Source: Octopus vulgaris
Lineage: Eukaryota
Direction of reading: 5' to 3'
Assembly: GCA_951406725.2 (NCBI GenBank)
Contig: OX597828.1
Span: 50,096,001 to 50,160,000 of the forward strand
Length of the DNA: 64,000 bases
A model generated the notes under the pieces. That model was not told where the DNA came from, did no database searches, and saw only the letters and a list, made by a program, of their open reading frames with translations. Shown piece after piece: positions 5,831-63,724 of this stretch; within the stretch, counting starts at the first letter, position 1; every line of letters starts with the position of its first letter. The position numbers were made by a program, and so were the translations under genes.

Positions 5831-5865
5831 GTTTCCGACGAAGAGCTCCGCTCGAAACGTCATAC
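5831..5865 (+). ncRNA. Minimal type I hammerhead ribozyme motif
   Basis: gttt-CCGACGA-a-gagc(tcc)gctc-GAAACGTC-atac; palindromic ACGT in place of stem III; one stem I mismatch. Confidence 0.75.
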
Positions 5866-5953
5866 CTCCCTGCTTCCATTTCCTGAGCGCCTATTAATAA
5901 TAATACTGTAATTGTTCCCTTGTTGTTGTTTTTTTGTTTCCCGTTTGGATTAA

Positions 5954-6405
5954 AATATATATATATATATATATATATATATATATATATATATATATAT
6001 ATATATATATATATATATATATATATATATATATATATATATATATATATATATATATATATATATATATATATATATATATATATATATATATATATAT
6101 ATATATATATATATATATATATATATATATATATATATATATATATATATATATATATATATATATATATATATATATATCGTTGCTATTATGTTAAACT
6201 ATCGAATGTCCAAATTTGGCCAAATGCGTTTTAACATAATCGCAACGATATATATATATATATATATATATATATATATATATATATATATATATATATA
6301 TATATATATATATATATATATATATATATATATATATATATATATATATATATATATATATATATATATATATATATATATATATATATATATATATATA
6401 TATAT
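5954..6405. repeat. Two long (TA)n runs separated by a 68-bp fold-back
   Basis: Direct observation. Confidence 0.97.
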
Positions 6406-7557
6406 CGTTGCTATTATGTTAAACTATCGAATGTCCAAATTTGGCCAAATGCGTTTTTCGCAATATTTATTTTTGCTTGCAATATCCTGTTCTTTTGGTC
6501 AAACTACCGTATCTCTAGCTTCAGATGCCAAGATATCAAATATACGAGGGGAAGTTAAAAAGTTACCTGCACTTTTGCCAGTGCACGTTGCCAGTGGAAC
6601 GGCCATGCTGGCACTGTAAAGCCAGAAAGAAAGATGGCGCGATCAGGCTCAAACTTCGACTACGTGACCAACATAGTACCAACTATAAGCACGCATGCGC
6701 AGAAGGCAGTGTGACAATAATAAAGATATGTTATGGCGAAAGTGCAGATAATTTTTGACTTCCCTTCATTTATGCATGTATGTATGTATGTATGTATGTA
6801 TGTATGTATGTATGTATGTATGTATGTATATATGTATGTATGTATGCATGCATGCATGCATGTATATATATATACATACATACATACATACATACATATG
6901 TATGTATATATATATATGTATATATATATATATATGTATATATATATATGTATATATGTATGTATATATATATATATGTATATATATATATATATATATA
7001 TATATATATATATATACATACATAATAAATACATACGTACATACATACATACACACACAAACACACATATATATATATATATGTGTGTGTGTGTGTGTGT
7101 ATGTATATTCTGGCTAGTACATGCTATTATTGAATTGTTAATCAGAAATTCTAGCGCAGCTGGCGGTCATTTGTAGCTATTCTACTGAAGCATCGTGTTA
7201 TCCACTTGTTTTGACTTATTGTATGGAATTGAGTTTTCGGACATGAGTATGCCGAAACTACACTGATTCATGTTTCCATGGCTAACGAGAGGTATTCCGT
7301 TAATTGACTTTCAGTTGTCTCACTATATTTTGACTACATATAAATGTATACACATACATACATACATACATACATACATACATACATACATACATACTTA
7401 CACTAATACGTACATATACACATATACGCATGCGCGCGCACATTTGTGAAATTATTCGATCATAAAGAATTAATGGCCTGATTCTTACTTTTGGAGGTTA
7501 TTTTGGTCAGCCTTCTCTTATAGCAGAACATTTTCATTCCCCTGTAACCAAATCATT

Positions 7558-10500
7558 CTTCCTTTCTTTCTTTCTTTCTTTCTTTCTTTCTTTCATTCTT
7601 TCTTTGTTTCTTTGTTTCTTTGTTTCTTTGTTTCTTTCCTTCTTTCTTTCCTTCTTTCTTTCTTTCTTTCTTTCTTTCTTTTTCTTTCCTTCTTTCTTTC
7701 TTTCATTCTTTCTTCCTTTCTTTCTTTCTTTCCTTCTTTCTTCCTTTCTTTCTTTATTTATTTCCTTCTTCCTTCCTTTCTTCCTTTCTTTCTTTCTTTA
7801 TTTATTTCCTTCTTCCTTCCTTTCTTCCTTTCTTTCTTTCTTTCTTTCTTTCTTCCTTTCTTTCTTTCTTTCCTCCTACTTCCTTTCTTTCTTTCTTTCT
7901 TTCTTTCTTTCTTTCTTTCTTTCTTTCTTTCTTTCTTTCTTTCTTTCTTTCTTTCTTTCTTTCCTTCTTTCTTCCTTTCTTCCTTTCTTTCTTTCATCCT
8001 TTCCATCTTTCTTTCTTTCTTTCTTTCTTTCTTTCTTTCTTTCTTTTTATCTTTCTTTCGTTCCTTCTTTCTTCCCTTCTTTCTTCCTTTCTTTCTTTCC
8101 TTCTTTCTTCCTTCCTTTCTTACCTTCTTTCTTTCTTCCTTTCTTTCTTTCCTTCTTTCTTTCTTTCTTCCTTTCTTTCTTTCTTCCTTTCTTTCTTTCT
8201 TTCTTTCTTTCTTTCTTTCCTTCTTTCCTTCTTTCTTTCTTTATTTTCCTTCTATCTTCCTTTCTTTCCTTCTTTCTTTCTTCCTTTCTTTCTTTCCATC
8301 TTTCTTTCTTTCTTCCTCTCTTTCTTTCTTTCTTTCTTTCCTTCTTTCCTTCTGTCTTCCTTCCTTTCTTTCTTTCCTTCTTCCTTTCTTTCTTTCTTTC
8401 CTTCTTTTTTCCTTTCTTCCTTTCTTTCTTTCTTTCTTTCTTTCTTTCTTCCTTTCTTTCTTTCTTTCTTTCTTTCTTTCTTTCTTTCTTTCTTCCTTTC
8501 TTCCTTTCTTTCTTTCTTTCTTTCTTTCTTTCTTTCTTTCTTTCTTTCTTTCTTTCTTTCTTTCTTTCCTTCTTGCTTTCTTTCTTTCTTTCCTTCTTTC
8601 TTTCTTTCTTCCTTCCTTTCTTTCTTTCTTTCTTTCTTTCTTCCTTCTTTCTTTCTTTCTTTCTTTCTTTCTTTCTTTCTTTCTTTATTTCTTTCTTTCT
8701 TTCTTTCTTTCTTTCTTTCTTTCTTTCTTTCTTTCTTCTTTCTTTCCTTCTTTCTTTCTTTCTTTCTTTCTTTCTTTCCTTCCTTCCTTCTTTCTTTCTT
8801 TCTTTCCTTCTTTCTTCCTTTCTTTCGTTCATTCTTTCCTTCTTCTTTCTACCTTTCATTCTTTCTTTCTTTCTTTCTTTCTTTCTTTCTTTCTTTCTTT
8901 CTTTCTTTCTTTCTTTCTTTCTTCCTTCCTTCCTTTCTTTCTTTCTTTCTTTCTTTCTTTCTTTCTTTCTTTCTTTCTTTCTTTCTTTCCTTCTTTCTTT
9001 CTTTCCTTCTTCCTTACTTTTTTCTTTCTTTCTTTCCTTCTTTCTTTCTTTCTTTCCTTCCTTCTTCCTTTCTTTCTTTCCTTCTTTCTTCCTTTCTTTT
9101 TTTCTTTCATCTTTCTTTCCTTCTTCCTTTCTTTCTTTCTTTCTTTCTTTCCTTCTTTCTTTCGTTCATTCTTTCTTTCTTTCTTTCTTTCTTTCTTTCT
9201 TTCTTCCTTCCTTTCCTTCTTTCTTCCTTTCTTTCTTTTTTTCTTTCTTTCTTTCTTTCCTTCTTTCTTCCTTCCTTCCTTCCTTTCTTTCTTTCTTCCT
9301 TTCTTTCTTTCTTTCTTTCTTTCTTTCTTTCTTTCCTTCTTCTTTCTTTCTTTCTTTCTTTCCTTCTTTCTTTCTTTCCTTCTTCCTTACTTTTTTCTTT
9401 CTTTCTTTCCTTCTTTCTTTCTTTCTTTCCTTCCTTTTTCCTTTCTTTCTTTCTTTCTTTCTTCCTTTCTTTCCTTCTTTCTTCCTTTCTTTTTTTCTTT
9501 CATCTTTCTTTCCTTCTTCCTTTCTTTCTTTTTTTCTTTCTTTCTTTCTTTCTTTCTTTCGTTCATTCTTTCTTTCTCCTTTCTTTCTTTCTTTCTTTCT
9601 TCCTTCCTTTCCTTCTTTCTTCCTTTCTTTCTTTTTTTCTTTCTTTCTTTCCTTCTTTCTTCCTTCCTTTCTTTCTTTCTTTCCTTTCTTTCTTTCTTTC
9701 TTTCTTTCTTTCCTTCTTCCTTACTTTTTTCTTTCTTTCTTTCCTTCTTTCTTTCTTTCTTTCTTTCCTTCCTTCTTCCTTTCCTTCTTTCCTTCTTTCT
9801 TCCTTTCTTTTTTCTTTCCTTCTTCCTTTCTTTCTTTCTTTCTTTCGTTCATTCTTTCTTTCTTTCTTTCTTTCTTCCTTTCCTTCTTTCTTCCTTTCTT
9901 TCTTTTTTTCTTTCTTTCTTTCCTTCTTTCTTCCTTCCTTTCTTTCTTTCTTTCTTTCTTCCTTTCTTTCTTTCCTTCTTTCTTTCTTTCTTTCCTTCTT
10001 TTTTCCTTTCTTCCTTTCTTTCTTTCTTTCTTTCTTTCTTCTTTCTTTCTTTTTTCATTCTTTCTTTCTTCCTTTCTTCCTTTCTTCCTTTCTTTCCTTC
10101 TTTCTTTCTTCCTTCCTTTCTTTCTATCCTTCTTTCTTTCTTTCTTTCTTTCTTTCCTTCTTTCTTCCTTTCTTTCTTTCTTTCTTTCTTTCTTTCTTTC
10201 TTTCTTTCTTTCTTTCTTTCCTTCCTTCTTTCTTTCTTTATTTCTTTTCTTCTTTCTTCCTTTCTTTCGTTCATTCTTTCCTCCTTCTTTTTATCTTTCT
10301 TTCTTTCTTTCTTTCTTTCTTTCCTTCTTTCTTTCTTTCTTCCTTTCTTTCTTTTCTTCCTTTCTTTCCTTCTTTCTTTCTTTCCTTCCTTCTTTCTTCC
10401 TTCCTTTCCTTCTTTCTTCCTTTCTTTCGTTCATTCTTTTTTTCTTCTTTCTTCCTTCCTTTGTTTCTTTTTTATCTCTTTTTTCCTTTCTTTCTTTCTT

Positions 10501-63240: not shown

Positions 63241-63402
63241 GACACTTGTCACCATTATCTCGCTCTCACATTCGCTCCCAAGCATCACCACAAACCACCA
63301 CGAAGGTAAAAGCAATTATGACTTCTCAAAGAAGCTCTGAAAGTGATAACTACCTACCTACCTACCTACACATGTATATATATATATATATATATATATA
63401 TA

Positions 63403-63590
63403 TAAAGTTAATACAAACAAGAAAACAAAAACAAAAAACAACAACGCAAGGACGTGGAACAATAAAGTATTATTGGACGCTCAGGAAAGAAGGGAAGAAG
63501 GAGGGTTTGACGTTTCGAGCGGAGCTCTTCGTCGGAAACTTACGAGAAGGAAAGATCCAGAGAAAGGAAGACAGGGGAAAAAATCGCTAG
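63403..63590 (-). mobile_element. Solo Penelope-like terminal repeat (pLTR) fragment ending at (TA)n
   Basis: Similar to 5760-5953 (tcctgagcg..aataatact..ttgttcc..gttgttgtttttt); abuts (TA)n at ~63376-63403. Confidence 0.75.
63505..63539 (-). ncRNA. Minimal type I hammerhead ribozyme motif (same family as 5831)
   Basis: Reverse complement gttt-CCGACGA-a-gagc(tcc)gctc-GAAACGTC-aaac with perfect stem I. Confidence 0.8.
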
Positions 63591-63676
63591 TGATACAGAC
63601 GAGGTCACTTCCTCCACCTCACTCTCTATTTTATATCTTATCTAAATTAACTATTTCTTAACTATCCTCTCACACA

Positions 63677-63724
63677 GTCTCCGATGAAGGGATATAATAA
63701 ATATCCTAGAAAGAGCTGTAAGAC
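63677..63724 (+). ncRNA. Type I hammerhead ribozyme motif
   Basis: gtct-CCGATGA-a-gggata..tatcct-a-GAAA-gagctGTA-agac; stem III one change from the palindrome ACAGCTGT. Confidence 0.72.

Follow-up and report, generated by a model that had tools for sequence, protein, structure and literature searches.

Hammerhead ribozymes with a palindromic stem III, their cleavage as dimers and the targeting of TA repeats have already been published for Penelope-like elements (PLEs) (PMC4209133, PMC8557442). The minimal hammerheads of metazoan PLEs (Cervera and de la Pena 2014, PMC4209133) are of type I with a short helix I and an extra base after A9, belong to many families per genome, mostly present as single truncated copies for which cleavage as dimers was proposed, and include opposite-strand pairs a few hundred bp apart as well as U3-A8 variants. 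The same properties are met in Octopus vulgaris, where a 64,000-nt stretch (assembly GCA_951406725.2, contig OX597828.1, positions 50,096,001 to 50,160,000 of the forward strand), hereafter the window, carries hammerhead motifs of four families, A to D, the extra base being found in A, B and D. Unlike the minimal hammerheads, B and C have stem II regions of 58-73 nt, and while the published consensus is CUGANGAH and the CCGA core is absent from the searchable supplement file of that study, CCGANGA is found here in three lineages. Very probably, these motifs are the hammerhead-shaped 3' ends of four unrelated repeat families, and the C in place of U at core position 4 (U4C) is likely a separate, tolerated and cleavage-weakening change in three of them. 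Most of this is known biology, the recurrent amplified U4C core being the sole part that looks new.

For each family a close relative has been described. The endonuclease-containing (EN+) PLEs of the Neptune/Nematis type (Craig et al. 2021, PMC8557442) resemble family A in having a reverse transcriptase (RT), a CX2-5CxxC linker and a GIY-YIG domain, in their partial tandems with pseudo-long terminal repeats (pLTRs) and in their targeting of microsatellites, family A differing by its 6.18-kb unit, its ~2.7 kb of element-borne CA-rich 3' sequence and its C4 core. The Hydra-clade PLEs of the same source resemble B and D in their CxCX5C linker, the absence of CCHH, the hammerhead and the insertion at (TA)n, whereas D differs by its mixed C4 and U4 subfamilies. 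Metazoan retrozymes without long terminal repeats (non-LTR retrozymes; Cervera and de la Pena 2020, PMC7229834; Li et al. 2026, 10.64898/2026.07.22.740005) are like family C in being short non-coding head-to-tail units with one type I hammerhead, low GC and strong self-pairing as a (predicted) circle, C differing from them by its length (485-487 nt versus the 150-450 quoted), its dispersed 0.5-1.5-mers, its PLE-type inversions and TA junctions, its non-canonical long stem II and its C4 core. The substitution itself is known from a viroid hammerhead (cited in Perreault et al. 2011, PMC3088659), where it is a rare variant, in contrast to the thousands of retroelement copies in separate lineages here. 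No report of U4C in PLEs was found in the literature searched, the coverage of which was incomplete, so that an earlier report could exist; the pattern CYGANGA also serves as a descriptor in RNA virome searches (PMC13481778).

Hammerhead motifs and the elements that carry them

The motifs were sought with a descriptor for type I hammerheads composed of core, stem II, palindromic stem III, UH and stem I, and their families were followed through the genome (2.8 Gb, 227 contigs); coordinates below are those of the window unless a locus label such as L032 is given. The strict descriptor found four sites in the window, whereas 200 local dinucleotide shuffles averaged 0.01, and two further copies of the same motif, at 5835 (U.U mismatch in stem I) and at 31890 (an inverted copy), failed the strict scan. 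The six cores thus lie at 5835-5861(+), 63535-63509(-), 32080-32157(+), 31890-31813(-, the inverted copy), 61087-61182(+) and 63681-63720(+), each with CUGANGA, GAAA and UH around three stems, the U4C version occurring in A, C and D. The four families have no BLAST match to one another within the window, and genome searches identified each motif as a member of a dispersed repeat family. A preliminary description of this DNA, which had proposed at least four distinct hammerhead families with unrelated stems and a CCGANGA core in three of them, is borne out in these respects. Its claim of a palindromic or near-palindromic stem III in each family also stands, except that A[g]AGCTGT, given for D, is a private mutation of the window copy, the family having ACAGCTGT (exactly GAAACAGCTGTA in 28 of 37 aligned copies). 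An Rfam scan of the window returned no hammerhead family among the matches listed (150 of 227), which were nearly all microRNA models on microsatellites, all under the gathering score.

The abundance of such motifs was estimated from eighty 10-kb stretches at round coordinates (800 kb), which gave 30 matches: 22 CTGANGA (7 from one tandem array), 4 CCGANGA, 3 with U3-A8 and one that is probably due to chance, compared with 0.1 CYGANGA matches per 800 kb after shuffling. The 26 CYGANGA matches extrapolate to ~91,000 genome-wide and 2.1 per 64 kb, with a probability of 0.16 for four or more, and four hammerheads per 64 kb are therefore ordinary for this PLE-rich genome. The sample also contains ~359-nt tandem units at L163:3082-4512(+), with an opposite-strand pair, each bearing a CTGACGA / ACCGGT hammerhead in the classic retrozyme layout, and the covariant U3-A8 cores (TTGANAA) lie at L211:8151, L223:8995 and L236:9958.

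Family A is, judged by its domain architecture, an EN+ PLE of the Neptune/Nematis type. The window copy (1797-5954, plus strand) is a 5'-truncated copy of a young 6.18-kb element, 99.2% identical over 4195 nt to the full-length copy L032, and runs from the end of an open reading frame (ORF) through poly-T and ~2.7 kb of CA-rich 3' region to a pLTR with the hammerhead, the whole sitting between TA runs at 1781-1797 and 5955-6180, the latter being the target run at its 3' junction. The ORF portion (1797-2945, plus strand) corresponds to residues 569-950 of the 950-aa RT plus GIY-YIG ORF of L032 (99.7% by tblastn); L032, one natural copy, keeps this frame open with DKG, YIDD, a CX4CxxC linker and GIY-YIG. 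The CX2-5CxxC linker was located by pattern search and the CCHH motif was judged by eye from the translation. The hammerhead (5831-5865, plus strand) belongs to the youngest subfamily and has CCGACGA, an ACGT stem III, the U.U mismatch in stem I and a predicted cut after 5861. With a 173-nt query from this family, 40 of 40 scored genome matches were 100% identical, several of them in pairs, and all seven pairs fetched read pLTR, ORF, CA-rich 3' region, pLTR and (TA)n, with identical hammerhead ends 6.17-6.19 kb apart around one ORF; partial tandems with hammerhead-bearing pLTRs are seen at 7/7 fetched loci. Among 30 A loci, 24 end in TA 93-95 nt past the predicted cut, the other six being upstream pLTRs that enter the ORF. 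The long, degenerate CA-rich array at 3000-5700 is not a local microsatellite, being carried by element A after a 29-nt poly-T with 99% identity between copies.

An older A stub of a C4 subfamily, also 5'-truncated, lies at 63405-63609 on the minus strand (core 63535-63509) with its 4-bp stem I intact and its (TA)n target run at 63375-63404. At 63609 it directly joins a plus-strand D stub, head to head and without a spacer (63375-63950); the joint mimics the 5' inversion of PLEs, yet its two halves come from different clades. Among the other 41 matches in the family D genome search, none spans this junction.

Families B and D, on the other hand, match the description of the Hydra clade (PMC8557442) by the features read in their predicted proteins. 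The B copy is the 3' end of such an element (31965-32296, plus strand; core 32080-32157, canonical CTGAAGA, ACGATCGT; 93% identity to L130), preceded by an inverted 5' arm that bears another copy of the hammerhead (31805-31964, minus strand; core 31890-31813) and followed by its (TA)n target run (32297-32348). Its cleavage site UU is private to the window copy (1/43), the family reading UA. At L130 the B 3' region runs ~1.7 kb upstream to a Hydra-type CxCX5C endonuclease. The D copy (63609-63950, plus strand; core 63681-63720, CCGATGA) is a Hydra-type 3' end with an optional ~150-nt tail; the family has two 3' ends, ~70 and ~225 nt past the cut, which matches the optional tail described for PLEs. 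Of the 30 loci retrieved with the upstream region of D, nine have a Hydra-type endonuclease upstream on the same strand. The two endonucleases are 32% identical (E 4e-21), both with the CxCX5C linker and, by inspection, no CCHH, and neither aligns to that of A; around the conserved E and N, D has both CxxC and CxH, and the single B copy has CxxC and no CxH. PLE ORF fragments beside L059, L049 and L119 were considered as partners of B or C and rejected, since they belong to neighbouring elements. Upstream of its B copy, L130 has one more Hydra-like fragment, of a different RT and endonuclease (L130:3841-5126), and, by coordinates, an inverted D pair with its axis on the stem III palindrome is present at G000:C2:129301256-129301331, suggesting fold-back during insertion.

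The C copy (61047-61313, plus strand; core 61087-61182, CCGATGA, ACTATGCATAGT) has only ATATAT at its 3' junction and is part of a non-coding unit of 485-487 nt, recognized because the sequence upstream of the hammerhead repeats that downstream. The repeat spacing, by one marker, is 463-488 nt in 6 of 30 loci and 487 nt also in L069; the longest stop-free frame has 72 codons, and the predicted circular fold is 7 standard deviations below 40 shuffles (z -7). The first-look candidates (2,298) overstate the number of hammerhead-bearing copies, 75 matching the exact pattern (control 7). In four readable relatives, compared by eye, stems I, II and III covary, both strands of each stem being altered, and all four are U4. 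The end-to-start joint of the unit is present in a large sequencing run of unknown kind and also in the genome. Li et al. recognize active elements by two or more consecutive complete hammerheads (10.64898/2026.07.22.740005); two complete C units in a row were found at none of 30 loci, L069 having one complete and one partial unit, and C is therefore called retrozyme-like only. It is likely copied by PLE enzymes.

Several points weigh against this account of the motifs and their carriers. Cleavage at the window hammerheads is predicted from sequence, and when five window copies were folded as monomers, the minimum-energy structure was never the complete hammerhead with its three stems. Folded as dimers, B and C pair through the palindrome. 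The 5' ends of A copies do not pile up at the cut (4/16, P 0.43). Against Pfam, the A protein matched RVT_1 at E 0.001 and GIY-YIG at E 0.004, both under the curated cut-offs. The connection of B to its ORF is seen at one locus, L130, with an ~86-nt overlap with the frame end in a second; the loci fetched yielded no RT motifs for B or D, nor was an autonomous partner recovered for C.

The U4C core variant and its explanations

Both states of position 4 are abundant in family A, the exact patterns of which gave 8,706 CCGA, 3,778 CTGA and 275 CCAA, the last serving as a control for CpG decay, which consequently accounts for few of the U4 copies of A. At 40 A loci the U4/C4 state went together with diagnostic positions in the flanks (Fisher P 4e-5 and 7e-8). 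A set of 100 A loci chosen by their 3' flank comprised two end types, one of 52 loci with 41 CCG and no CTG, the other of 31 with 16 CTG and 4 CCG, and 17 unassigned loci. In D, the first 100 of 3,884 matches, tallied by hand, comprised 47 CG, 39 TG, 9 CA and 5 other, and CCG is present in 68 of the 75 exact-pattern copies of C. When 19 A copies were found by flank alone, 15 had kept the core, its identity to the young subfamily being 0.96 versus 0.75 and 0.77 for the flanks. The core is thus conserved across subfamilies, and C4 subfamilies have been amplified beside U4 ones. In the 800-kb sample, C3-G8 cores had U at position 4 in 22 cases, C in 4 of the 26 and never A or G, a fourth family carrying C4 once (L220). 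Polarity was not read from a FastTree analysis of 42 short A segments, the support of which was poor. Since A and D have U4 sister subfamilies, the relatives of C are U4 and C4 is rare in the sample, U4C is likely derived, with a separate origin in at least three lineages (A, C and D), in a motif that is still constrained. The preliminary description had treated U4C as a shared change, which these separate origins contradict; its suggestion that the change may tune cleavage is plausible.

As a tentative explanation, U4C may be a positively selected attenuation, fast cleavage cutting the template to a stub and slower masters making more long copies and replacing U4. This is consistent with the presence of C4 in at least three separate lineages and once in a fourth family, with the restriction of position 4 to U and C in the sample, with the excess of C4 over U4 copies in A and with the greater number of other core changes in A copies with U4 (10 in 6 copies versus 1 in 9). 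Moreover, the youngest full-length A subfamily combines C4 with a weakened stem I, and the in vitro insertion of a lizard PLE used mainly uncut RNA as its substrate (PMC11167929). Nevertheless, U4 is kept by most sampled families, drift among masters could yield the same pattern, given that U-to-C is a simple transition and position 4 the mildest of the core, and older C4 and U4 groups are similarly diverged by a crude measure (0.112 and 0.117).

Slightly less probable, and still doubtful, is that cleavage has been lost in C4 motifs, which would persist as a signal to the retroelement protein, either for its binding or in RNA folding. According to PMC3088659, U4C "considerably decreases activity in vitro"; hammerhead mutants left insertion in vitro unaffected (PMC11167929), core and stem II are fixed across A subfamilies that differ in the cleavage-site base and in stem I, and the missing pile-up of 5' ends in A fits this explanation as well. 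Yet the catalytic G8, G12, A9, A13 and A14 and the UH site are kept, and the same viroid variant retained enough activity in vivo (PMC3088659). In D, furthermore, 14 copies are truncated between -120 and +14, seven of which have their first base at -4 to +12 relative to the cut (P 8e-4, an interval picked post hoc); these copies are not assignable to the C4 or U4 type. Three of these seven starts (+9, +11 and +12) lie at the TTTATAAA palindrome and six of the seven have an inverted arm, which makes fold-back an alternative to cleavage at these sites.

The preliminary description had further proposed that the palindromes act as family-specific dimerisation codes in one coordinated system, which is very unlikely. 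The predicted self-pairing of B, C and D (-10.0, -15.9 and -11.1 kcal/mol) does far exceed cross-pairing (-2.5 or weaker), but such pairing is expected of any set of differing palindromes, and the 4-nt ACGT of A pairs with B at -1.1, nearly equal to its own -1.7. The families belong to different PLE clades, and unrelated families share palindromes, which leaves the idea unsupported: ACGT occurs in three of them and ACGCGT, ACACGTGT and ACCGGT in two each, the ACGATCGT of B recurs in another family, and the palindrome varies within C's own lineage. That CCGA is ancestral and CTGA copies are products of CpG decay after insertion is the least credible explanation, since, although CCGA holds a CpG and decay products exist (the CCAA copies of A and the 9 CA in D), CTGA exceeds this opposite-strand control 14-fold in A, where decay is already contradicted, and ~4-fold in D, is tied to subfamily diagnostics and is matched by U4 in 4/4 readable distant C relatives.

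TA junctions and other features of the window

The distance from the hammerhead cut to TA is specific to each family: ~95 nt in A, 139 in B, 130 or 230 in C and 70 or 225 in D. TA lies at most 300 nt 3' of the cut in 24/30 A, 28/30 B, 22/30 C and 26/30 D loci, and, for 100 A copies selected by their 3' flank, at most 110 nt from the search motif in 91, while the window copies of C and D have at most three TA units at their 3' end and no TA run. In the systematic sample, with five tandem copies and the chance match dropped beforehand, (TA)4 or more was found within 300 nt 3' of 14 of 18 full-flank hammerheads (background 0.236, P 2e-6), and TA was present on the 5' side in 9 of 22 (P 0.05). Upstream inversions were seen in 12/30 B, 9/30 C and 8/30 D loci. 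The anatomy of the elements, their inversions and 5' truncations and the 3' ends that each family has at TA are direct observations, and the TA runs are insertion targets. The TA enrichment anticipated by the preliminary description is confirmed on the 3' side; its statement that all motifs are anchored to (TA)n at 90-140 bp is not confirmed, the window copies of C and D having no such run and the distances spanning 70-230 nt. Likewise, the system it envisaged is Penelope-driven, genome-wide and TA-targeted as proposed, but consists of separate selfish retroelement families and not of one system.

Two further sites in the window resemble remnants of such elements. At 27498-27466 (minus strand) a CTGAAGA core with GAAA, the perfect palindrome ACTCGAGT and poor stems is possibly a decayed fifth hammerhead family, and at 27860-27871 (plus strand) GAAA and CGATCG, ~40 nt upstream of a TA run and with a broken 5' core, are probably a decayed PLE stub. 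A sequence of ~67 nt near 6181-6457 occurs once between TA runs and again past the second run, there continuing into unique sequence. A 5.6-kb (TTCT)n array (7556-13187) dominates the repeat-finder output, and fragments of a zf-RVT long interspersed nuclear element (37808-38515, plus strand; PF13966) and of a mariner-type transposase (55504-55938, minus strand; PF01359) are also present.

Proposed mechanism and meaning

Published work on PLEs (PMC4209133, PMC8557442, PMC11167929) suggests a scheme in which the GIY-YIG endonuclease would nick TA DNA and reverse transcription would begin 70-230 nt downstream of the hammerhead and usually halt early, so that the genome would fill with stubs of hammerhead plus tail beside TA runs. 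The palindromic stem III may let two copies of the same family cleave as a dimer, slowly and perhaps with the assistance of a protein, poor cross-pairing between families being presumably a by-product of the palindromes and not a selected code. Located 70-230 nt upstream of where reverse transcription begins, the ribozyme would sever the template from the body of the element, which may be the reason, as we infer, for weak cleavage being tolerated or favoured. The role of hammerheads in PLEs has been called unclear (PMC8557442), and PLE insertion in vitro proceeded without cleavage (PMC11167929).

Taken together, it is possible, although we hold it with considerable reserve, that the retroelement hammerheads of this genome evolve repeatedly toward weak, not dead, cleavage, U4C having swept independently in Neptune-type, Hydra-type and retrozyme-like lineages, since long copies would require a ribozyme so close upstream of the reverse-transcription start to cut only rarely. 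For the search of such elements, descriptors fixed on CUGANGA would miss ~70% of the exact-match copies of A. Three unrelated lineages, two of them with copies in the thousands, offer sister subfamilies that differ at one core base and permit cleavage rate to be compared with copy age and length; if the repeated weakening is true, these U4/C4 sister pairs would be a natural experiment on the role of PLE hammerheads.

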